Source of the DNA: a virus
Taxonomy: Duplodnaviria; Heunggongvirae; Uroviricota; Caudoviricetes
Virus record (IMG/VR): IMGVR_UViG_3300015615_000629
Location: 96,001 to 160,000 of that record
DNA: 64,000 nucleotides
Strand: one strand, 5' to 3'
The notes under the pieces are model-generated. The model was not told the origin of the DNA. It was given only the letters and a program-made list of their open reading frames with translations, and made no database searches. Positions within the stretch are counted from its first letter, which is position 1; each line of letters opens with the position of its first letter. Position numbers and translations under genes: made by a program. Positions 16,496 to 58,838 of the stretch are shown in pieces.

Positions 16496-16725
16496 TATTT
16501 CCTTAAATCATTGGCAATTGTCGCAGCCTTTTGGAGTAATTCCTTGTCCAAAACAGCAACAACAATATGTTTCTCAATAGAAACAAACTTCTTTGAGCCT
16601 AAAGAAAATGCTTTAGGCTCATGGTCGAGCGTCTTAATGTAAATCTCATCATTCCACAAAAATTGCTCACCATATGGCAATTCTTCAAATGTTAAAGTTT
16701 TGCTAAATGTTAAAGTTTCGTTCAT
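16489..16725 (-). CDS. Small hypothetical protein (start MNETLTF), tandem paralogue
   Basis: LTFEELPYG..F..N.EIY.K.LDHEPKAFS shared with 16733-16930. Confidence 0.6.
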   Translation of the reverse strand: MNETLTFSKTLTFEELPYGEQFLWNDEIYIKTLDHEPKAFSLGSKKFVSIEKHIVVAVLDKELLQKAATIANDLRKYW

Positions 16726-16732
16726 CTTTTCC

Positions 16733-16930
16733 TTATTTCCTTGACCAAGGACCAAATGTCGATACCGCAACCTCTGTCTGATCGGGAACAGAAACAAATT
16801 TCTTCGATTGCCGAGAAAATGCTTTCGGCTCGTGATCAAGCACTTTAAAGTGAATCTCATTGTTTAGCAAGAAATGATCACCATAAGATACTTCTTTAAA
16901 CGTTAAAACTTTTGTGAATGATTCGTTCAT
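16733..16930 (-). CDS. Small hypothetical protein, tandem paralogue
   Basis: LTFKEVSYG...KVLDHEPKAFS. Confidence 0.6.
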   Translation of the reverse strand: MNESFTKVLTFKEVSYGDHFLLNNEIHFKVLDHEPKAFSRQSKKFVSVPDQTEVAVSTFGPWSRK

Positions 16931-17145
16931 CTTTTCCCTTCTAATTGCTCTTGACGCTCTTGTCGTGGACTTTTACCAATAAATTTGCCAACAGTTACCC
17001 AGTCTTCACCAGGACGCTTTATTTGAAAATAATCCTCGCCATCTATCGTTATCTCACGATAATGACCACTAGGAGAACCTTCCCAAACCTCAACATGATT
17101 CGAACAACCCGCCAAAATACAAATTATGAATAAGTATCTTTTCAT
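16927..17145 (-). CDS. Small lipoprotein
   Basis: MKRYLFIICILAG-C lipobox. Confidence 0.6.
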   Translation of the reverse strand: MKRYLFIICILAGCSNHVEVWEGSPSGHYREITIDGEDYFQIKRPGEDWVTVGKFIGKSPRQERQEQLEGKR

Positions 17146-17461
17146 GCCTTTTCTATCTTAGTAAAAGGAAAAGGCTCCTTCATTAGTTTATCGTAAATTT
17201 CATCTCGCTCTTTTTCAGTAGAAAAATCAAATGACAAGTCCCTTGTCATCGTGGGTAGCCACGTTCCACCAGCACCAGACGGCTTTCCTACCATCTTTTC
17301 AATAATTTTGTCCTTGTCCCGCAACTGCCCTGGTTCCGTCAACTCATAATAGACGTTAAGAAAGTAGGTTTTCATGCTCTCTCCTACAAGTTGCCACAAC
17401 ATGATTATAGCACAACTAGAAACGCCCGTCCAGTTTTCTGAATAATTTGCCAGAAAGCAGC

Positions 17462-17489
17462 TTGCAATTTACTTCCACTAGTGTAGAAT
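17462..17489 (+). promoter_or_regulatory. Sigma70-type promoter (divergent from a minus-strand TGTGC-TATAAT promoter at 17404-17432)
   Basis: TTGCAA-16 nt-TAGAAT. Confidence 0.55.
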
Positions 17490-17547
17490 GTTGCGTGGAA
17501 GACTAGGTAAATGGCATCTCAACTTTTGAGGGGCCAGTTATTGCGTA

Positions 17548-17596
17548 AGCCAATGTTCTAGGTGGCAACTGCCGTCTATTAACGTTGGCTTTTTTT
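17548..17596 (+). terminator. Intrinsic terminator-like hairpin overlapped by a 16-aa uORF (17511-17561)
   Basis: AGCCAATGTT...AACGTTGGCT followed by a T run. Confidence 0.55.
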
Positions 17597-17609
17597 ATTG
17601 GAGAATACA

Positions 17610-17840
17610 ATGTTGTTGTTGCTCGATCCAGCCGACACAAGTCCCTACGCAATCCTTCAAGGCAGACTCGATGAATTAGAATGTAGAAGGAAATTGCTAA
17701 AAGGCAACAACATCCCAATGGCATTAATGGTAAAAGAAATCAGAAAACTAGAAATCGATTTGCTAAAAATCGATGGACTTATAGAAATCCTTGAGTATAT
17801 TCTAGTTTTAGAATCTAGTTTAAGTGACCCGTGGATTTAA
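17610..17840 (+). CDS. Small coiled-coil protein, paralogue of 15820-16047
   Basis: GGAG RBS; ILQGRLDELECRRKLL...EIRKLEIDLLKIDGL. Confidence 0.6.
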   Translation: MLLLLDPADTSPYAILQGRLDELECRRKLLKGNNIPMALMVKEIRKLEIDLLKIDGLIEILEYILVLESSLSDPWI

Positions 17841-17841
17841 G

Positions 17842-17915
17842 TGACCCTACGGGGAGTTGAACCCGCGATTTCCAGCGTGAGAAGCTGGCGTCCTGAGCCA
17901 TTAGACGATAGGGCC
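17842..17915 (-). tRNA. tRNA-Glu(CTC)
   Basis: Cloverleaf; CCAGC-TT-CTC-AC-GCTGG; GGTTCAACTCC. Confidence 0.92.
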
Positions 17916-18287
17916 TTAATGAAATTCCACATTTTCGTTTTTGCTGTATGCGTCTCTTAAACCATTAATAAACTTTACCGCACTATCATAAACCCAACCA
18001 TGCGGGTGCCAGTAATCCCCTTCCTCTGTCTTTAATTCTTCAAGAATAGATTCTAAATCTTCAGCAATTTCAATTCCATCTTCGGGCGATATCTCTCCAT
18101 CACAGTCAGAGTGATGTAAGAGTTTGTTCAAGCCTCTACTTGGAACTTCATCCCAAGGAATCCCGTTTTCACAATATCCTTCCATTGCCTTTAAATTGAT
18201 ACCTATTTTCTCGGCAATAGTTTTACGCCAAGTCATGAAACTAGAATATGAGCCGTGCCAACAATCATGTGTTGTGTCTAAGCCCAC
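17916..18287 (-). CDS. Hypothetical phage protein
   Basis: MGLD...GSYSSF..WR...LLHHSDCDGEI. Confidence 0.65.
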   Translation of the reverse strand: MGLDTTHDCWHGSYSSFMTWRKTIAEKIGINLKAMEGYCENGIPWDEVPSRGLNKLLHHSDCDGEISPEDGIEIAEDLESILEELKTEEGDYWHPHGWVYDSAVKFINGLRDAYSKNENVEFH

Positions 18288-18771
18288 GGGTTATCCTTTA
18301 ATTCTGATATTGTATTTTAGCAAGTTCTCTTCTTAAGCCAACAAATATCTCACATCTCATATCAATCAGAACAATAAAAAGTTCGTCTGAACTATTATCG
18401 GCGGCATACATGGCCGCTCGGCAAAATTTGCCTCTGTTGAGCAAATTGTAAAAATGATCAAGGCGTTTCTTGGTGTCGTCTAAACCCACGGGTAGTACCA
18501 ATTTAATCGAGATTTAGCGATGTTGTAAGCGGCTTGAGCAACCGTTGCTTTTCCTCTGCGACGTTTAATTTTCAGAAATTCTCGAAATAGAATTCCCTGT
18601 TTTCGCCTTCTTTCGGCCATTCGCTTGTTCATGCCGATGCCTGTCCAGTCACACGAAGGTATTCAACTATCTCGTCAAATTCTTCGGCAGTAAATGCCTC
18701 TTTTTCAAGTTTTGCCCATTCCTCGTCTTCGCTTTCCATTATAGTCTAAAACTCCGAATATTTCAAGCAAG

Positions 18772-18842
18772 TGGACTCACTGGGAATTGAACCCAGATTT
18801 TTAGACTGCCAGCCTAATGTCTTCCCGTTTGACGATGAGCCC
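18772..18842 (-). tRNA. tRNA-Ala(GGC)
   Basis: G3:U70; TTAGG-CT-GGC-AG-TCTAA. Confidence 0.88.
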
Positions 18843-18856
18843 ATAAAACTTTAAAA

Positions 18857-18927
18857 TCAAGGTAGAAGAAATCGAATCTTCGCTTTCGGCTCCCCGAACC
18901 GACGGACTACCATTATCCCATACCCTG
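18857..18927 (-). tRNA. tRNA-Pro(GGG), C at position 33
   Basis: C1:G72, A73; TCGGT-TC-GGG-GA-GCCGA. Confidence 0.8.
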
Positions 18928-18931
18928 GAAG

Positions 18932-19003
18932 TAGACAGTACAGGGTTTGAACCTGTGACCTTTTCCGTGTCGAGGAAACGCTCTACCACTGAGCTAACTG
19001 TCT
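18932..19003 (-). tRNA. tRNA-Val(GAC), C at position 33
   Basis: TTTCC-TC-GAC-AC-GGAAA; canonical D and T arms. Confidence 0.9.
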
Positions 19004-19020
19004 ATAATCTATTTTTAAAG

Positions 19021-19094
19021 TGCGGCTGCGGAGAATTGAACTCCGTCTTCGAACTTGGCAGAATCGCGTGCGAAAACCACTACACTACAGCCGC
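19021..19094 (-). tRNA. tRNA-Gly(GCC)
   Basis: GCGGCTG/CAGCCGC-A; CGATT-CT-GCC-AA-GTTCG. Confidence 0.85.
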
Positions 19095-19098
19095 AAAA

Positions 19099-19170
19099 TG
19101 ACCCGTGAGGGAGTCGAACCCTCCTCTGCTGCTTGAAAAACAGCCATCCTGACCGCTAAACGAACGGGCC
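19099..19170 (-). tRNA. tRNA-Glu(TTC)
   Basis: GCTGT-TT-TTC-AA-GCAGC; GGTTCGACTCC. Confidence 0.9.
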
Positions 19171-19812
19171 TTGTGTTAATTTCTGAATTTCTTCAATTTT
19201 ATCTCGTGGCGTTAATGCTCTTGTGCAATAAATCCATTCTCCGTCTACTAATTTTAAATGTCTAATTATGTGACAGGATGCACAAACTATTTCCAAATTC
19301 TCTTCACAATTATTCAAATTATTGCCATCAATATGATGAATAAAAAGAAGAAATTTAGCTGTTTCGCCACAACCAACGCATCCTTTTGTTTCTTCGTCCG
19401 ATAATCTTTCTTTTTTTATTCTTTTTGCCAGTTGAGATTTTTCTGCTGTCCCGTAATGTGGTGGCATTATTTCTTTAATACCACCAATACGTTGAGCCAT
19501 ATCCTTGCATTTTCTAGAACAGAATCTAAATCCGGATTTTGAATTTTTAAATTTACAATCGAGCTTTTCGAATTCATCTTTACAATAATCGCAAACTAAT
19601 ATTGTTCTACGTTGTCTTCCTTTATCTGCACATTGCTTACTACAAAATCTTCTTTTACCAGTTAGAATATCTTTTGCTCTAGCCGAAAATAATGTGCCGC
19701 AACCTTCGCACTTTTTTTCCAAACCTTTACGTCTTCTGCCGCCTTCTTCGATAATCCAAATTTCCATTTTATCCTCCACATTACAAGAGTGTGGAGGATA
19801 AAATATTTGCAA
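19156..19812 (-). CDS. HNH homing endonuclease with Zn fingers, inside the tRNA array
   Basis: CEGCG..FCSKQC, CDYC..FCSRKC, C.GCG...IHHIDGN..NN.EENL..VC.SCH..RH. Confidence 0.85.
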   Translation of the reverse strand: MQIFYPPHSCNVEDKMEIWIIEEGGRRRKGLEKKCEGCGTLFSARAKDILTGKRRFCSKQCADKGRQRRTILVCDYCKDEFEKLDCKFKNSKSGFRFCSRKCKDMAQRIGGIKEIMPPHYGTAEKSQLAKRIKKERLSDEETKGCVGCGETAKFLLFIHHIDGNNLNNCEENLEIVCASCHIIRHLKLVDGEWIYCTRALTPRDKIEEIQKLTQGPFV

Positions 19813-19840
19813 TGCAAATTAATATTTTCCCAAATTTAAG

Positions 19841-19911
19841 TCCTCCCTGAAGGAGTCGAGCCTTCTACGCTTGCTTGTAATGCAAGAATGATTCCGTTTC
19901 ACCAAGGGAGG
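19841..19911 (-). tRNA. tRNA-Val(TAC)
   Basis: CTTGC-AT-TAC-AA-GCAAG; T loop CTCGACT. Confidence 0.8.
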
Positions 19912-19914
19912 AAG

Positions 19915-19985
19915 TGGACCCAGAGAGAATCAAACTCTCGCTTTCGGATTGCAAAACCGACGTACTCTCATTATACTATGAGCCC
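19915..19985 (-). tRNA. tRNA-Ala(TGC)
   Basis: G3:U70; TCGGT-TT-TGC-AA-TCCGA. Confidence 0.82.
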
Positions 19986-20017
19986 AAATTTAACTTCAAA
20001 ATTTTCAAAGAACAAAG

Positions 20018-20088
20018 TAGCCCGTAGGAGAATCGAACTCCTGTTGAAGCGATGAAAGCGCCTTCGCCTACCACTAGCGGAACGGGCC
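20018..20088 (-). tRNA. tRNA-Glu(TTC), second divergent copy
   Basis: AGGCG-CT-TTC-AT-CGCTT; AGGAG-TTCGATT-CTCCT. Confidence 0.8.
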
Positions 20089-20092
20089 AAAA

Positions 20093-20163
20093 TAGCGACA
20101 AGTGGAATTGAACCACTATAGGGAGCGTATGAAACTCCTGCACTACCGTTGTGCTATGTCGCC
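20093..20163 (-). tRNA. tRNA-Met(CAT) (elongator Met or Ile2)
   Basis: GGAGT-TT-CAT-AC-GCTCC. Confidence 0.85.
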
Positions 20164-20171
20164 ATCAAAAA

Positions 20172-20330
20172 CTATTCAACTAAATCGTTGCTATTCATCC
20201 TCTCTGTAAGAGTTTCTAACAGTTTTGGATTTCCAATTAACTTTTTCAACATTTGAACATCCGCATTGCAATCTGCTAAACGGCTTTCAAGTTGTTCAAG
20301 CAGTCGCAACACAAAATCGTTAGCGTCCAT
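20172..20330 (-). CDS. Small 52-aa ORF inside the tRNA array (not in the ORF track)
   Basis: AAGGA RBS; MDANDFVLRLLEQLESRLADCNADVQMLKKLIG... Confidence 0.5.
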   Translation of the reverse strand: MDANDFVLRLLEQLESRLADCNADVQMLKKLIGNPKLLETLTERMNSNDLVE

Positions 20331-20424
20331 TTTCGTATCCTTCTAGAGAAGTGAAACCCACTACCCTATAGGGACACAAAACAGGCTGCTAGCCGCCACA
20401 ATTCCGTGAATTTTCTCCAAAAAG

Positions 20425-20498
20425 TCGGAATGGACGAATTCGAATCGTCGGCCTCTCGCTCCCGAAGCGAGCGCTCTTCCAAACTGAGCTACATTCCG
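20425..20498 (-). tRNA. tRNA-Pro(CGG)
   Basis: CTCGC-TT-CGG-GA-GCGAG. Confidence 0.92.
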
Positions 20499-20506
20499 AT
20501 AACTAA

Positions 20507-20577
20507 TCAAGGTAGTTGGAATCGAACCAACGCCCCGAGCTTCCAAAACTCGTAGACTACCACTATCCCATACCCTG
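20507..20577 (-). tRNA. tRNA-Pro(TGG)
   Basis: CGAGT-TT-TGG-AA-GCTCG. Confidence 0.9.
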
Positions 20578-20585
20578 TAAAAACG

Positions 20586-20620
20586 AAAAAACCCGCATCA
20601 GGTTTTATCCTGAGCGGGTT
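20586..20620 (-). terminator. Attenuator terminator hairpin directly upstream of the first tRNA
   Basis: AACCCGC-TCAGG-ATAAAA-CCTGA-T-GCGGGTT followed by a U tract. Confidence 0.85.
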
Positions 20621-20689
20621 CCAGTATTAACTTTGAACCAAACTCAGGATTACTTTCCTGAGTTGGTGATTACCAGCAGGAAAGCGCGG

Positions 20690-20761
20690 TTAGGCTGCGG
20701 GGGCTGGACGTTCGCCAGCCGGCATACCTTCGACCATCGCTTCCACTACTGCTAATTTCAT
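20690..20761 (-). CDS. Leader peptide MKLAVVEAMVEGMPAGERPAPAA of a putative tRNA-operon attenuator
   Basis: AAGGA RBS; 23 codons, 20 of them Ala/Val/Glu/Met/Gly/Pro, the isotypes of the downstream array. Confidence 0.8.
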   Translation of the reverse strand: MKLAVVEAMVEGMPAGERPAPAA

Positions 20762-20864
20762 TGTATTGTTCCTTCTTCTCTTATCTATGCACGTTGCACG
20801 GATTTTTCACTACTACGTAATTGTGCCTCAACCTACGTGTTCTACGCAGGTCGTCACTTCCACC

Positions 20865-20892
20865 AGTTTAGCACGATTTTTTCGATTGTCAA
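20865..20892 (-). promoter_or_regulatory. Sigma70-type promoter of the leader/tRNA operon
   Basis: TTGACA-16 nt (ending CGTGC)-TAAACT; a TAGATA box also lies at 20782-20787. Confidence 0.7.
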
Positions 20893-20897
20893 GCGAC

Positions 20898-21419
20898 TCA
20901 AGAAAAATTTTCTTCGCACCACTCTTTGAATCCAGCCTTCTTACCATAACGTGTCCGAATGTATTTCTTATAAGCCTCTGGACTCATTTTACCTCTAGGA
21001 CGAGCCTCGGGCCTTCTATAAGGCGAATCCCCAGAACCCATATTTATTGTATCTGGATGTAATACGGTTACGGGATCAACATCCTGCGATGCAGCATAAG
21101 CAACATTTCTTCTGGTTCCAAATCCTTGTTCTTTCTGAAACTGTTGTCTTACAAAGTCTGAGACAATCGTGCCACGCCTAGAAAACGGCATATTCTGGAA
21201 TGAGGGAACTTTTCTTTGAACATAATCATTAACCATCTGAATAAGTTTGTCCCTATTGTCCATAAAATATTGGTAATTATTATGCATCCAATTTGGCTTT
21301 CCTTTACCGTTAAGTGGATTAGATGCATATCTTAGTGCGGAGTCAACAAATTTAGGGACATCCGGTAACATGTCTCTGTCGGCTCGCATAACCATTTCTA
21401 CATATTCTTTGAACAACAT
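20898..21419 (-). CDS. Putative late/virion-internal protein
   Basis: TAAATA 5 nt before the ATG; N-terminus MLFKEYVE. Confidence 0.6.
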   Translation of the reverse strand: MLFKEYVEMVMRADRDMLPDVPKFVDSALRYASNPLNGKGKPNWMHNNYQYFMDNRDKLIQMVNDYVQRKVPSFQNMPFSRRGTIVSDFVRQQFQKEQGFGTRRNVAYAASQDVDPVTVLHPDTINMGSGDSPYRRPEARPRGKMSPEAYKKYIRTRYGKKAGFKEWCEENFS

Positions 21420-21448
21420 GCAAGTATTTAGGAATTACTTGTCATTAT

Positions 21449-21889
21449 TTAGTATGCGTGCGGGCCAAGCAAATCGAAACTACGTATTTGTCCCTTCTTT
21501 AAACAAGTCTCAAATACATCGATATAACGATTTCGATATCGAACATCAACCATGTAAAAGTGACTTGTAAAAGAAGTTGTCCAAAAACGATCTAAAACTT
21601 TATCGAAAAGAATCTTTTCTTTATTGTCGCCTTCTGATACGGATTCGTCGTAGACGAAATTTCTAAGACAAACTTTTCCGAATTGTTCGATATTTGGCAA
21701 CAGGGGCACACGTTCACTACTTGGCAGCCTAACCCTTAAATCACGGAAGGAGAGAATGGCAGTCTCTCCATTTTCAAAAAACCCGCTATAACCCAATTCA
21801 AATACTAAATCAGGAAAAGCCACAAAATATGGCTTTTCCTGATAAAGAATGGTTCGGTTTCTGCCTTTAACTAAGCGAAGTGTTAACAT
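21449..21889 (-). CDS. E2-like paralogue 4
   Basis: RTILY..KPYFVAFPDLVF...LLPNIEQFGKVCL...DRFWTTSFTSH. Confidence 0.65.
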   Translation of the reverse strand: MLTLRLVKGRNRTILYQEKPYFVAFPDLVFELGYSGFFENGETAILSFRDLRVRLPSSERVPLLPNIEQFGKVCLRNFVYDESVSEGDNKEKILFDKVLDRFWTTSFTSHFYMVDVRYRNRYIDVFETCLKKGQIRSFDLLGPHAY

Positions 21890-21898
21890 TATGGAAAA

Positions 21899-22336
21899 TC
21901 ATTCTTTAGAAATGTTTCCAACGACTTCGAAAACTACAGGAACGCCATTTACTTCTGTTGGCCACATGCCAACAGGTTTGGATTCGAGATTAATTTTCAG
22001 TCCATATCCTTCGCCAATACTAGTAATCCCTATTCCACGGACTAAGGCATCAGGGCAAAGCCCCTTAAACGCATCCATAGCGGTTTCTTTGACGGCTCTA
22101 ACTTCATCTAGTGTGAAATTATAGCGTCGGGCTTTTAGTTCATCGGGCTCATATTGATGGTCTAATTGGACACGAACGCCCATATCTTGGAGTTTTGGAA
22201 TAAGATTTGGATCGATATTTTCAACAGCAAGGAGGAATCGATCATCGTTTCTAAGGGCGATATCTATGCCTTCTAGGGCAAGGAGGACTGCGTTGTAGGA
22301 TTCTTGATTTGGGGCGACGATTTTATGTCGGGTCAT
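21899..22336 (-). CDS. Hypothetical protein
   Basis: 145-aa ORF between two E2-like genes. Confidence 0.55.
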   Translation of the reverse strand: MTRHKIVAPNQESYNAVLLALEGIDIALRNDDRFLLAVENIDPNLIPKLQDMGVRVQLDHQYEPDELKARRYNFTLDEVRAVKETAMDAFKGLCPDALVRGIGITSIGEGYGLKINLESKPVGMWPTEVNGVPVVFEVVGNISKE

Positions 22337-30566: not shown

Positions 30567-30859
30567 TTTATGTCCGGAACTACTTTTATCCTTGTGGCGA
30601 TTCCGTCGGTGAATCTTATCACGTAACGCTTGAGTCCATTTGAGATAAACATATCCAAATGTGTGTCTTTGATAAGAATAGGTTCTTCAAGTGCCTCGCC
30701 ATCAAACCAACCAGACGACATTTGCCATAGTTTACCGTCTTTGTCGATTTTATAATCAGTAAGCGTGCTATCTAAAGCCTTTGTCTGAAACTGAATTCCA
30801 GCCGGATCGGTCCCATCGGGCAGATCCATTTCAACGGTAACGGTGTCATACATTCCCAT
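30563..30859 (-). CDS. Hypothetical phage protein
   Basis: MGMYD...FQTK.LD..L..Y.I..DG.L. Confidence 0.6.
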   Translation of the reverse strand: MGMYDTVTVEMDLPDGTDPAGIQFQTKALDSTLTDYKIDKDGKLWQMSSGWFDGEALEEPILIKDTHLDMFISNGLKRYVIRFTDGIATRIKVVPDIK

Positions 30860-31846
30860 TATAGTTCCAAAATAAGTTCCGGATTATTGTCAAAAACGCA
30901 GAGACTTTCGGAAAAATCTTTTAATTTATGAGTCGGGTATCGCTCCATAAGTTTGGCAACAATCTTGTCGTGCCAATTTTCTTCCCAATACCTGCAACAT
31001 CCGCTATCTTGGTCATTCAAAGCAGCATACATATCTGTCTTGTTTTCCCGAACATATTGTTCAACGATAGAAAAATCTTCCTCCGAAACAGAAAAAACGT
31101 TTCTACATTGAAAATCAATAGGTTTTTCAGCAACCAATAAGGTAAATTCTTCATCAATTGGGAATAACGTAAGACGACCATGTGTTTGTAGGCTTCGCGT
31201 TGCCAAAAAATCACTTACCGAAATCTGACAAGGCAAATCTATCGCTTTGTCAATCGGGTCTCTCTTTTTGAGGCCGACCACCAATGGGATGAGCAAACTT
31301 GTTAGTCCAAAACTTCTGCGGTTCACTTTTCTTGTTCCTTGTTAGCTAGATTCGTGTTGGCATTGATGGCATCGGCAAGACCTTGAAGTTCCGTCGCGTG
31401 AAAGAAGACGTCTTTCAATTGATTAGCAGTCAGTTGTGACAAAACGCTGTTAATACATATCGCCAAATAGCAAGCACCGTCACCACGAATAAAATACCCA
31501 GGCCAGTCGTCGCCAAATTGAACAGCCCCCGTTTCGACGCGGGGCTCAACTTTAGGCATCTGCTGAATTCCCATTATCACTGAACCTCAATTGTCGTATG
31601 TTTCTTAATAGACATTTTCTTCGCTTCATATACGCTTACATTGTCGCCATATCTTTGGATATAAGAAATCACTTCGCCCTTGGTTTTAAATTCACGAACC
31701 TCCTTATATTGTTCGGTTCGTTCCGGATATCCATGACCTGGATTCGTTCTGGATCGCTCATCCCCTGGAATATAAACGCTTACCTCACTCACAACCAAAT
31801 AGATTAGATCGTCAGAATTAACTGGAGTTGGCGGCTCAGTCACAAT

Positions 31847-50021: not shown

Positions 50022-52037
50022 CTACAACAACTTACGAAGACCATCTATGTCGAGTATTTTAACGTTCAACTCCCTTGCCTTGTCGCTCTTAGAACCAGAA
50101 CCAGGGCCAGCAACAAGGTAATTAACCTTTCTACCAACCGAACCCACACAGACGCCACCAAGGGATTCTACCATAGATTCCCAATGTCGTTTACCATCAT
50201 CGAAACCACCACTAAAACAAAAAGTCAAACCAGACAATTTGCCTTTCGGAGTTTGTTTCGGCTCAAGATACTGTAACAGGTTTTCAATACGATTTTTGTT
50301 TCTTTTCAGATAGGCACAAAAGACTTCGGCGGTTTTCTGCCCAACACCATCAATCTTTACATAATCTTCGACGGATGCCAAGAAAATTGCGTCTAGATTC
50401 TCAAATTCAGAAACAATCGCTTTGGCTGTTGAGTCCCCAATACCTTTAATGCCAAGAGAGGCAAGAATCTGCCAGAGCGGCAATTCAATCTTATGTTTTC
50501 TTCGGGAAGCGATTTCTTTTTGAAGATCAGAATCTTCCATTTTATCAGGAGATTCTATCAAATAAATCCCTGCCAAAGACAGCAAGGCAATTCGCTTAGA
50601 CAAACCGCTGCGGACACAATCCTTAACATCCAACTTATAGAAATCAGCAAATTCTTTAACAACCCCGCCATCAAGCAAAGATTGAAGCCGAGAAGTGCCA
50701 ACCCCTAATACGCCCATTTTCTTCAAGAAGTATTCAAGTAAACCTACGCTTCTGGCTTCGCAAAAATCATTTTCACATAAAAGTTCCGACATTTCGCCAT
50801 TTGTGGAAATCTGAGTTTTTTCGCCACAAGAAGGGCAATGACTTGGCGGAACCGTTTTCTTTTTATCACCAACAACTTCAATAACTTTTGGAATAATTTT
50901 ACCAGACTTAATTATCTTAATCTTGGTTCCAACACCAATCTTGTTACGAAGCAAAAAGCCAAGGTTGTGCATAGTGGCACGACTTACCTTAGTGCCTGCA
51001 AGGGGTGTTGGGGCAAAGTTTGCGACAGGAACAATTTTACCTGTGCGACCAACTTGCCAAGAGATAGAAGCAACAACAACTATGGCACATTCCTCGGCAA
51101 ATTTCCAAGCAATTTTACCTTTCGGATTGCCTGTAACTGGGTCGCCGTGCCGGCCAAGTTGTTCCTGATCTTCAAAATTATCAACACTTACTACAACGCC
51201 ATCGACTTCATAATCAAGATTTGGAACATTTTTCTCCATTGTTTCCAAATCGTCGAACTTGAGCCGCCTTACCTGAACAAATTGAACGCCAAGTTTTTGA
51301 TTGCACCACTTGGCACGTTCAATTTCAGTCTTATAAGGAGGACTTTTTAAGCCATCAATAGCGTAGGCAATAAAGGTAAGGCGTTGGTCTTCTACGTTTT
51401 TTGGGTCATTAAATTGACGGATACCGCCAGCGGCATGATTTCTTGGGTTGGCCCGTTCATCTTCGCCGGCTGCAATTAGTTCCTGTTGAACTATTTCAAA
51501 ATCAGACAATTTACAGATTAATTCGCCCGAAATAGAACAAGTTAAAGGCAAATTAAGAGTTTGAGGAACACCCGTTACATATTTCACTTGTTCGGTTACA
51601 TCTTCGCCAAACCTACTCTTACGCGGTCTTAGCCCAGCCTTATCAAGTTTACCATCTACGTAATAGAGTCTTAAGGCCACGCCATCCAGTTTATATGCTT
51701 GAACAAATTGAACATCGGGGATTTCGTTTTTACAGTCCACCAACCATTTATCTAGAATATCTTTTTTCTTATTTGGGTCTTCGTGGTTAGCCTTCTCGAT
51801 AGAGGTAAAGGCGGGATGGTGCTCGAACTTTCTGCCTTTTTCCTTGGCGGTTGAAGCCGTATTGAACTTGAAAATCTTAGAATTAGGATGGAGAGTACGT
51901 AGTTCAAACCTGAACATATCGTACTGGCCATTTGTAACAATGGCACCTGTATCGGGATGGATACAGGGGAGACCCTGATCGTAAAGGGTGTCCAGATGTT
52001 CAATTACACGTTCTAGTTCGTCAATTCGTGGGTTCAT
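50022..52037 (-). CDS. ligA: NAD-dependent DNA ligase
   Basis: KLDG, ANPRNHAAG, DGVVV, WQVGRTG, CPSCG Zn finger, HhH motifs, BRCT domain. Confidence 0.95.
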   Translation of the reverse strand: MNPRIDELERVIEHLDTLYDQGLPCIHPDTGAIVTNGQYDMFRFELRTLHPNSKIFKFNTASTAKEKGRKFEHHPAFTSIEKANHEDPNKKKDILDKWLVDCKNEIPDVQFVQAYKLDGVALRLYYVDGKLDKAGLRPRKSRFGEDVTEQVKYVTGVPQTLNLPLTCSISGELICKLSDFEIVQQELIAAGEDERANPRNHAAGGIRQFNDPKNVEDQRLTFIAYAIDGLKSPPYKTEIERAKWCNQKLGVQFVQVRRLKFDDLETMEKNVPNLDYEVDGVVVSVDNFEDQEQLGRHGDPVTGNPKGKIAWKFAEECAIVVVASISWQVGRTGKIVPVANFAPTPLAGTKVSRATMHNLGFLLRNKIGVGTKIKIIKSGKIIPKVIEVVGDKKKTVPPSHCPSCGEKTQISTNGEMSELLCENDFCEARSVGLLEYFLKKMGVLGVGTSRLQSLLDGGVVKEFADFYKLDVKDCVRSGLSKRIALLSLAGIYLIESPDKMEDSDLQKEIASRRKHKIELPLWQILASLGIKGIGDSTAKAIVSEFENLDAIFLASVEDYVKIDGVGQKTAEVFCAYLKRNKNRIENLLQYLEPKQTPKGKLSGLTFCFSGGFDDGKRHWESMVESLGGVCVGSVGRKVNYLVAGPGSGSKSDKARELNVKILDIDGLRKLL

Positions 52038-57624: not shown

Positions 57625-58838
57625 TGAAATTACTCAACCATAAAGGCCGAATTTCCGATCCAACCAGTAGCTTTCTATGAAGAAAGTCTAACACCAGGAC
57701 AATCGGCTATCCCCGTAATTCCTACGGTTCTATTTTGCTCATTTAATCCTTGTCTCAATATGTTTTTAGCAGCATTTAGATCCCGCCCCAAATGCTTGTT
57801 ACACCTTGGACAAGTCCATTCTCGATCATTTAATGTTAAACTATCATTTATATAACAACACTCATTACAAGTCTTTGAGGATGGAAACCAGCGACAAATT
57901 TGTATAAATTCCCGTCCATACCAACGTGATTTATACTCAATTTGTCGTATTAACTCATATAATGAGCAATCTTGAATGGCTTTTGACAACTTACGATTCT
58001 TCATCATTCCACTTATGTTCAAATCTTCCATAATGATAACTTGGTTTTCGCTAACGATTTTATGGCTAATTTGGTGTAAATGGTTATTTCTAATGTTGGC
58101 GATCTTGTTGTCTAGTTTGGCTAATCTTATTCGTGCTTTTTCTCTACCTTTTGAACCTTTTATAGTTCTTGAAAGGGCTTTGGCTCGAATTCGTCGGGTT
58201 TTTTCAAGTGTTCGATATGGTTTGATATTCTTGTATATTGTTCCATCTGAGCAGATGGCTAAGTCTTTGACTCCTAAATCAATTCCAACGGTTTTGTCAG
58301 TTTTAGGAAGTTGTTCAATAGTTCGTTTAACACAGACACTTACAAAATATTGCCCAGCTTTGTTTTTTATTACGGTCACGTTTCTTATTTCGCCTTCTAT
58401 TTGTCGATGAAGATTTATCCTTATTCCTTCTTTAAATTTAATGATGTGTAGATTGTCATTTTCAATTCTTATGTTTTGTGGAACTCGGAACGATTGTTTT
58501 GCATGACGTTTTTTGAATTTGGGAAAACCACTAAGTTTCTTATAGAATCTGTTGAATGCTCCATCTAGGTGCTTGAGGGCGTATTGAAGGCTTTGGGCAT
58601 TGACCTCATTTAACCACTTAAAGTCTCTCTTAGTTTCAGTAAGGACTTTGTTATCATCGAAATAATTCAAAGATTTCTTGTCTAAATCTTTTTCTTTTGC
58701 TTCAAGGTAAAACTTTGTTCGGTTGTCAAGGAAATGATTATAGCACCAACGGACGCAACCAAAATGTTTAGACAATTTGATTTCTTGTTCTTTTGTTGGA
58801 TAAAGTCTGAATTTATACGTGTAATCTGTTGGCTTCAT
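57625..58838 (-). mobile_element. tnpB: Solo IS200/IS605-family (IS1341-like) tnpB with right-end omegaRNA region; CDS 57675-58838
   Basis: YKFRLYPT HTH; RuvC GIDLG / EDL / RDLNAA intact; SSKTC..C..WTC..C; hairpins ending in TTCA at 57625; no tnpA nearby. Confidence 0.9.

Follow-up and report, generated by a model that had tools for sequence, protein, structure and literature searches.

In the his attenuator (hisL) of Salmonella and E. coli, six segments of the leader transcript, A to F, pair in two competing ways, A:B, C:D and E:F against B:C and D:E, and transcription terminates when the leader peptide is translated in full or not at all. The ilvGMEDA (Ile/Leu/Val) and thr (Thr/Ile) leaders carry mixed codons, and shortage of any one of the amino acids relieves termination. 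The E. coli pheST attenuator, with its pheM leader, places a component of translation under the control of its own charged transfer RNA (tRNA) supply, while the T-box binds one uncharged tRNA directly and makes a terminator/antiterminator choice upstream of genes for aminoacyl-tRNA supply. Here we analyse a 64,000-nucleotide (nt) window, bases 96001-160000 of the 572,167-bp IMG/VR virus record IMGVR_UViG_3300015615_000629 (genome coordinate = window coordinate + 96000), in which a short leader open reading frame (ORF), alternative RNA helices and an intrinsic terminator precede a block of phage tRNA genes. We consider it highly likely that this locus is a his-type six-segment leader-peptide transcription attenuator gating the phage tRNA operon.

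As far as can be read from the DNA, each of the sequence-level features that characterise ribosome-mediated leader-peptide attenuators is found at the locus. That the ORF is translated, that its translation is coupled to RNA polymerase, that read-through responds to stalling and that the products feed back on the leader are steps that we infer. The locus resembles hisL in its six-segment competition, in a leader ORF overlapping A and in a stop codon just before B. It differs in that it would control tRNA genes and not enzymes of amino-acid biosynthesis, in that six amino acids would be sensed through 19 scattered codons and not through a run of seven His codons, and in having no sequence similarity to hisL. 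The cmscan search of window positions 16500-22000 at E <= 1 returned only tRNAs and chance matches on tRNAs, with no His_leader, Leu_leader, Thr_leader or Trp_leader family and no T-box.

With the ilvGMEDA and thr attenuators the locus shares a multivalent leader peptide, but those leaders sense pathway end products, whereas the phage element would sense decoding by its own tRNA classes, its product acting directly on the sensor. Like pheST, it would be a leader-peptide attenuator governing part of the translation apparatus; pheST, however, is a cellular system in which a synthetase is regulated through a single amino acid, whereas the phage element is viral. The tRNA-governed choice between terminator and antiterminator is common to the T-box, which needs no ORF, while the phage element has a frame-specific one. 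To our knowledge, essentially nothing is known about how phages regulate their own tRNA genes, and the presence of dozens of tRNAs in giant phages is debated (codon bias, host shut-off, counter-defence). A full-text literature search, which left most subscription journals uncovered, brought up no report of a leader peptide attenuating tRNA genes, whether in phages or in cells.

Architecture and alternative folds of the leader

The elements follow each other on the minus strand in the order promoter, Shine-Dalgarno site, leader ORF, six pairing segments, terminator and first tRNA gene. The leader ORF (20690-20761; 23 codons and TAA; peptide MKLAVVEAMVEGMPAGERPAPAA) is the putative sensor and reads ATG AAA TTA GCA GTA GTG GAA GCG ATG GTC GAA GGT ATG CCG GCT GGC GAA CGT CCA GCC CCC GCA GCC TAA. 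It is absent from the program-made ORF track; the initial annotation had picked it out from the letters, and it is present at 20761-20690 exactly as written there. The residues A, V, E, M, G and P account for 20/23 of the peptide, and the array downstream carries the isotypes Pro, Met, Glu, Ala, Val and Gly, which confirms the correspondence of six isotypes that had been drawn from the letters.

The sigma-70-type promoter was found where it had been proposed, at 20865-20892 (TTGACA-16-TAAACT, 10/12 consensus matches, with an extended -10 TG). It begins 6 nt past the stop codon of a 173-codon upstream gene (20898-21419), whose end in minus-strand transcript order lies at 20898, and its TTGACAAnCGAAAA form is common to the promoters before the other two tRNA arrays of the genome and to a suppressor-tRNA promoter. 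The 5' untranslated leader of 97 nt (20762-20858) folds into independent hairpins, including a 10-bp one at its 5' end, and a Shine-Dalgarno sequence, AAGGA (20774-20770), stands 8 nt 5' of the ATG.

The controlled unit would comprise 11 tRNA genes (18771-20577, minus strand; ARAGORN and Rfam) in the order Pro-tgg, Pro-cgg, Met-cat, Glu-ttc, Ala-tgc, Val-tac, Glu-ttc, Gly-gcc, Val-gac, Pro-ggg and Ala-ggc. Together with Glu-ctc the array holds 12 tRNAs; ARAGORN reports 11 of them by default, and Ala(tgc) at 19914-19985 was added by Rfam and by ARAGORN at a low threshold. The tRNA list of the initial annotation is correct, and Glu(ctc) alone has no cognate codon in the leader. The first gene, tRNA-Pro(tgg), lies at 20577, one base past the end of the U tract (20591-20579). 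The promoter scan of the locus found no promoter-like site between the terminator and the first four tRNAs, which would therefore be reachable only via the terminator; inside the block there is one weaker minus-strand promoter-like site, at 19999-19970, overlapping tRNA-Ala.

All six complementary segments were found, within a few bases of where they had been placed initially. Segment A (20738-20755) covers codons 3-8 and pairs with B (20670-20686), which begins 4 nt past the end of the stop codon and can pair with A or C; C (20652-20667) can pair with B or D, and D (20630-20650) with C or E. The intrinsic terminator (20579-20622) consists of arm E (20622-20609), a loop, arm F (20602-20588) and then UUUUUUCGUUUUU. 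Helix A:B joins 20755-20738 with 20670-20686, and the whole ORF with B folds as one long hairpin of -43.8 kcal/mol. Helix B:C (20685-20672 with 20652-20667; core CUUUCCUG:CAGGAAAG) is predicted at -15.9 kcal/mol, with pairing that starts 7 nt after the first base of TAA, and helix C:D (20667-20656 with 20637-20649) at -16.3 kcal/mol. The antiterminator D:E (20650-20630 with 20607-20625; core AUCCUGAG:CUCAGGAU plus GGUUC:GAACC) has -22.0 kcal/mol, and the terminator helix E:F (20622-20609 with 20588-20602), a stem of 13-14 bp, has -20.9 kcal/mol.

By default the leader folds into the ORF/B hairpin (-43.8 kcal/mol), then C:D (-16.3) and then E:F (-20.9); when A and F are masked, B:C (-15.9) and D:E (-22.0) form. 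The two outcomes are nearly equal in predicted energy, B to E alone giving -37.9 kcal/mol (B:C and D:E; z -7.8) and C to F alone giving -37.7 kcal/mol (C:D and E:F; z -8.5). Against shuffled sequences the 281-nt leader is also strongly structured (-111.5 kcal/mol, z -7.95), as is the part from the ORF to the terminator (-84.4 kcal/mol, z -8.46). Isoenergetic, mutually exclusive folds of overlapping sequence, such as these models predict, are the signature of a switch. The searches found no homologous leader that might show compensatory changes in the helices, and the paralogous terminator of the third array differs just in the loop and at a bulge.

A ribosome was represented by a footprint mask that took in 15 nt on the 5' side of the A-site codon and 12 nt on its 3' side, with thermodynamic folding only. 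The A:B and B:C probabilities were taken from a transcript ending after E and the terminator probabilities from the full leader; in one model pairs were allowed to span the ribosome and in the other they were not, and the terminator values given here withhold the RNA behind the ribosome. With no ribosome, A:B, C:D and E:F form (A:B 1.0, B:C 0, terminator 0.98), and with the A site at codons 1-3 the terminator keeps a probability of 0.86-0.98. At codons 4-15, A:B is 0, B:C is about 1.0 in both models and the terminator is at 0.01-0.63. At codons 16-21, A:B returns if spanning is allowed and B:C is 1.0 if it is not (this extends to codon 22), with the terminator at 0.00-0.65. When the stop codon occupies the A site, the footprint extends into B, B:C is 0-0.33 and the terminator returns to 0.97. 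The logic that had been borrowed from his, termination at the stop codon and read-through on stalling, thus emerges from footprint-constrained folding as the expected truth table.

On this reading the phage probably makes these tRNAs only when ribosomes decode the leader codons slowly. The promoter at 20892-20865 would fire, and a ribosome would translate the 23-codon leader just behind RNA polymerase. Fast decoding would bring the ribosome to TAA, where it would cover B; C:D and E:F would form, and transcription would stop at the U tract before the first tRNA. If no ribosome were loaded, A:B would form, with the same termination. A stall at an Ala, Val, Glu, Gly, Pro or Met codon would hold A off B, the freed B would pair with C, and D would pair with E upon the emergence of E, so that the terminator would be blocked and the tRNA block transcribed. 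Fresh phage tRNAs would then accelerate leader decoding and close the operon again. Such a device would be a supply-and-demand governor of the tRNA set, opened also by loss of host tRNAs.

Codon content of leaders and arrays

The 22 internal codons of the leader were scored, with standard wobble, for decodability by the array tRNAs. All but three of them, AAA, TTA and CGT, can be decoded; array-decodable codons make up 0.286 of the codons in the long ORFs of the genome, and the binomial P for 19/22 is 2.8e-8. Among the 3,612 genomic ORFs that start with ATG and have 15-40 codons, the leader scores best (runner-up 0.67), and a search of the long ORFs in 22-codon windows, 123,842 in all, gave no score of 19 (maximum 17). 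The decodable stretch runs through codons 4-23 save CGT, codon 18. AAA and TTA, also unmatched, come directly after the start codon (codons 2 and 3), and a ribosome stalled there leaves the terminator at a probability of at least 0.86.

The five other frames of the leader gave 5/21, 4/21, 3/22, 9/21 and 5/21 decodable codons, and 20,000 dinucleotide shuffles averaged 8.9 and peaked at 17. The leader ORF has a G+C content of 61%, and the codons for Ala, Gly and Pro are themselves rich in G+C; composition as the cause of the codon match is ruled out by these frame and shuffle controls. Since the match is frame-specific, selection on translation is indicated.

Below the level of the amino acid, the initial annotation had extended the match to individual isoacceptors, and this claim held in part. 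An exact Watson-Crick codon is present in the leader for 10/11 distinct anticodons, all but ctc, against a mean of 7.25 after synonymous shuffling (P = 0.028), but coverage by wobble (10/11 anticodons) is no better than synonymous shuffling gives (mean 9.2, P = 0.39). The match at the amino-acid level is decisive, and that at the isoacceptor level is suggestive.

The other two arrays of the genome, on the minus strand as well, are preceded by leaders of their own. Array 2 (Leu/Phe/Ser) has a like promoter, the leader ORF MNAMFSLSLSFLSLSLYSDDG and a terminator. Array 3 (Thr/Cys/Lys/Ile/Arg/Gly/Trp/Asn/Asp/His/Gln) has the leader ORF MSLMIGTRRDKQHNWCDINTRQGCTIISS and a terminator that is a 38-bp, 92% identical copy of the array-1 terminator. 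The fractions of codons decodable by arrays 1, 2 and 3 are 0.86, 0.05 and 0.09 for leader 1, 0.15, 0.60 and 0.15 for leader 2, and 0.07, 0.11 and 0.79 for leader 3, a diagonal 3x3 matrix with off-diagonal values of 0.15 or less. A blind scan of the genome for small ORFs up to 400 nt upstream of tRNAs had leader 1 as its top hit (1.4e-7), followed by leader 2 (1.8e-5). For leader 2 the equilibrium footprint folding, a crude test, gave a terminator probability of at least 0.94 at all positions and did not support a switch there.

For comparison, we assembled 84 loci, namely 80 IMG/VR loci (690 tRNAs) collected via the HNH endonuclease encoded at 19156-19812, three metagenomic loci and Escherichia phage ESCO13. 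These clusters resemble the locus described here in that tRNA genes are mixed with HNH endonuclease genes and small ORFs, but ESCO13 and the 83 metagenomic loci have no upstream small ORF scoring better than p = 2.5e-4. This minimum over 1,441 candidate ORFs upstream of tRNAs is about what chance gives, which shows the test to be calibrated. Gating leaders are accordingly no general feature of phage tRNA clusters, with the reservation that many array starts may fall outside the fetched flanks.

Beyond these loci, the arrays of two further giant phages, reached via the same collection, were examined. In the 536-kb record IMGVR_UViG_3300009031_000221, a promoter, the ORF MKTLTTSFTERSTVTKGESLTSWYLLSPEGVGGR and a terminator-like hairpin precede 22 tRNAs of E, F, L, S, T, W and Y only, and MPEGISNPPHAVAAAREGNGRDPQGVPDF with a terminator-like hairpin precedes an array of H, N, P, G, I, Q, R, K, D, A, V, E and M. 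The MKTLTTSFTERSTVTKGESLTSWYLLSPEGVGGR leader matches its own array at 22/33 codons and the other array at 12/33; for the MPEGISNPPHAVAAAREGNGRDPQGVPDF leader the counts are 22/28 and 2/28. The 536-kb phage appears, from its sequence, to be unrelated to the 572-kb phage: the 1109-aa protein of the window, the one protein tested, has no detectable homologue in it. It splits its tRNAs among arrays differently from the 572-kb phage, and the leaders match their own arrays despite this different partition, therefore leader content follows array content across genomes. The co-variation of leader and array that the initial annotation had proposed as a check is thus borne out among analogues, in the 3x3 matrix and in the two leaders of the 536-kb phage, but homologues were not found.

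Past the terminator-like hairpin and ahead of the first tRNA, both putatively gated arrays of the 536-kb record (L092 1021-1345; L094 reverse strand 1794-2108) share the motif CTTTGACAACTGAAT, similar to a boxA-type signal for antitermination or to a second promoter. Another candidate leader at L094 (51 codons, p = 1.6e-5) was rejected, as it is the C-terminus of an ordinary Lys/Glu-rich protein. In the 395-kb record IMGVR_UViG_3300024252_000004 (L096 10856-10939), the ORF MLNALLDTLDSDDDLSDDLRCAATFIS stands 37 nt ahead of Leu(tag), Leu(gag), Leu(aag), Asp and Asp, with Leu(taa) upstream of the ORF; all six of its Leu codons are CTN (p = 1.6e-5), and no intrinsic terminator is visible. The match of this ORF reflects either chance or a different mechanism.

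Points against the attenuator and alternative explanations

Several observations weigh against a ribosome-operated switch at array 1. In full-length equilibrium folding with spanning pairs allowed, the terminator always prevails (probability >= 0.93), therefore the decision of the switch has to be kinetic, as it classically is in the trp and his attenuators. Stalls at codons 16-21 leave A free behind the ribosome, and in the permissive model it pairs again with B; two of the three Pro codons fall in this zone, and sensing there presupposes steric exclusion or a trailing ribosome. On our assumption, a queued second ribosome could cover A during late-ORF stalls. The CGT (Arg) codon lies within the sensing zone and belongs to the decoding set of another array, and the Met label of tRNA(cat) does not set it apart from a lysidine-type tRNA-Ile. 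The isoacceptor match is weak here (P = 0.028) and not significant in the 536-kb phage (P ~0.55).

To these points is added the lack of any homologue of leader 1 in the blastn, IMG/VR and JGI searches. The leader with 3.4 kb of upstream sequence had no blastn match among 50,697 phage records, and blastn over the leader and the first tRNAs returned tRNA-Pro matches only. IMG/VR scans with the upstream 173-aa protein, the terminator pattern, the downstream 457-aa protein and the tRNA-Pro pattern were all empty, and an alignment of the upstream protein likewise drew no match from JGI metagenomes. The sole relative of that protein (72% identity) lies on an 832-bp contig with different downstream sequence.

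The explanation that survives best beside a closed-loop governor keeps the same attenuator and changes its purpose to counter-defence, as the initial annotation had proposed: the operon would normally be off and would fire when an anticodon nuclease or another tRNA-targeting system depletes the host tRNAs. Phage tRNAs counter tRNA-cleaving defences in T4 and T5-like phages, which gives the idea a precedent, and the leader would sense decoding speed at precisely the codons served by its cargo. The full tRNA complement lies in three blocks with separate putative gates, so that a hit on one tRNA class would open the relevant block only, and the genome encodes a CCA-adding-type enzyme. However, the sequence cannot separate this trigger from a mismatch in codon supply or from plain feedback, an RtcB-type tRNA repair ligase was looked for in the genome and not found, and blocks of 11-18 tRNAs would be a coarse answer to a nuclease cutting one or two species. 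We regard counter-defence as a possible but rather doubtful purpose of the attenuator.

Explanations that dispense with the sensing ribosome fit poorly, because the codon match is both frame-specific and array-specific. The promoter, the ORF for a 23-residue peptide and the terminator might form a self-contained small gene, with the tRNAs expressed by constitutive read-through of the terminator or by upstream transcription and the codon match incidental. A small-protein gene needs no more than a promoter, a short coding frame and a strong terminator, and many small ORFs of phages are genuine genes. Such a gene would leave unexplained a composition that mirrors the array, in three versions within this genome and in two more within another phage, an isoenergetic alternative fold overlapping the terminator, and a stop codon placed 7 nt ahead of B, and the first four tRNAs would have no promoter-like site of their own after the terminator; we consider it very improbable. 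A switch of RNA only, or one set by a protein or a T-box-like RNA-tRNA contact, is equally hard to credit: a bistable fold needs no ORF and T-box riboswitches do sense tRNA, but the match depends on the frame (19/22 in frame against 4-5/21 out of frame), a Shine-Dalgarno site stands at proper spacing, no T-box or other Rfam family matches the leader at E <= 1, and 11 different tRNAs could hardly be bound by one RNA.

Genomic surroundings and biological meaning

The twelfth tRNA of array 1, tRNA-Glu(ctc) (17841-17915, minus strand), lies about 850 nt past the other eleven and is not sampled by the leader. A promoter-like site (TTGAAA-17-TATAAT, 11/12 matches) was detected at 18766-18738 on the minus strand, directly 3' of tRNA-Ala(ggc), and three small ORFs (17916-18739, minus strand) fill the space between it and tRNA-Glu(ctc). 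Because of the distance and of the strong promoter-like site and small ORFs that intervene, this tRNA is perhaps ungated and may be a separate unit outside the block.

Between tRNA-Pro(cgg) and tRNA-Met there is a 52-codon ORF (20172-20330, minus strand) with a good Shine-Dalgarno site; as it sits among the tRNAs of the block, protein-coding sequence would ride on the gated transcript. The ORF at 19156-19812 (minus strand), between tRNA-Glu(ttc) and tRNA-Val(tac), encodes an HNH endonuclease whose relatives, with PF13392 or PF01844, are located within the tRNA clusters of numerous other large phages. Its true start is probably downstream of the listed TTG, judging from relatives of 165-195 aa.

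The source record has direct terminal repeats and is estimated to be complete. The genome G+C content is 39.6%, and the standard code (code 11) gives 84.5% long-frame coverage; an alternative genetic code was ruled out, as read-through of TAG or TGA adds just about 6 points of coverage, and the leader stop is TAA. The genome has at least 43 tRNAs, the majority of them in the three arrays. A TAG-suppressor-type tRNA(cta) was found at genome positions 30802-30894. Beyond the window, at genome positions 286200-286900, a TTGACAAACGAAAAAA-type promoter stands ahead of three elements: a tRNA-like one that carries a long insert, a gene for a small protein, and tRNA(tca), which is of the TGA-suppressor type.

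The first tRNA of array 1, the sole one read through its 3' end, does not encode CCA. At genome positions 529039-529530, also beyond the window, a 524-codon gene has a match to PF01743, the family of CCA-adding / poly(A) polymerase nucleotidyltransferases. The window itself also encodes a transposase (57675-58838, minus strand; phrog_506, E = 1.6e-124) and an NAD-dependent DNA ligase (50022-52037, minus strand; phrog_3869, E = 1.2e-120). A Terminase_6C search of the genome gave no match.

Taken together with the leaders of the 536-kb phage, the locus leads us to favour the view that some giant phages with near-complete tRNA sets run each block as a closed-loop governor, the terminator being opened only when decoding lags. 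If this is true, no earlier transcription attenuator would be known for tRNA genes, nor any with a product that feeds straight back on the sensor controlling it. Classical attenuation, described for amino-acid and synthetase operons, would be extended to tRNA genes and to viruses by a compact element of about 300 nt. The three differently spelled leaders in one genome provide a natural specificity experiment, in which limiting one tRNA class should open one block only. A sensor placed at the codons that its cargo serves would mean tRNAs made on demand, with direct feedback from translation to tRNA supply, and the phage would take over or repair the decoding capacity of the cell block by block, which would also be an automatic answer to tRNA-cleaving defences.

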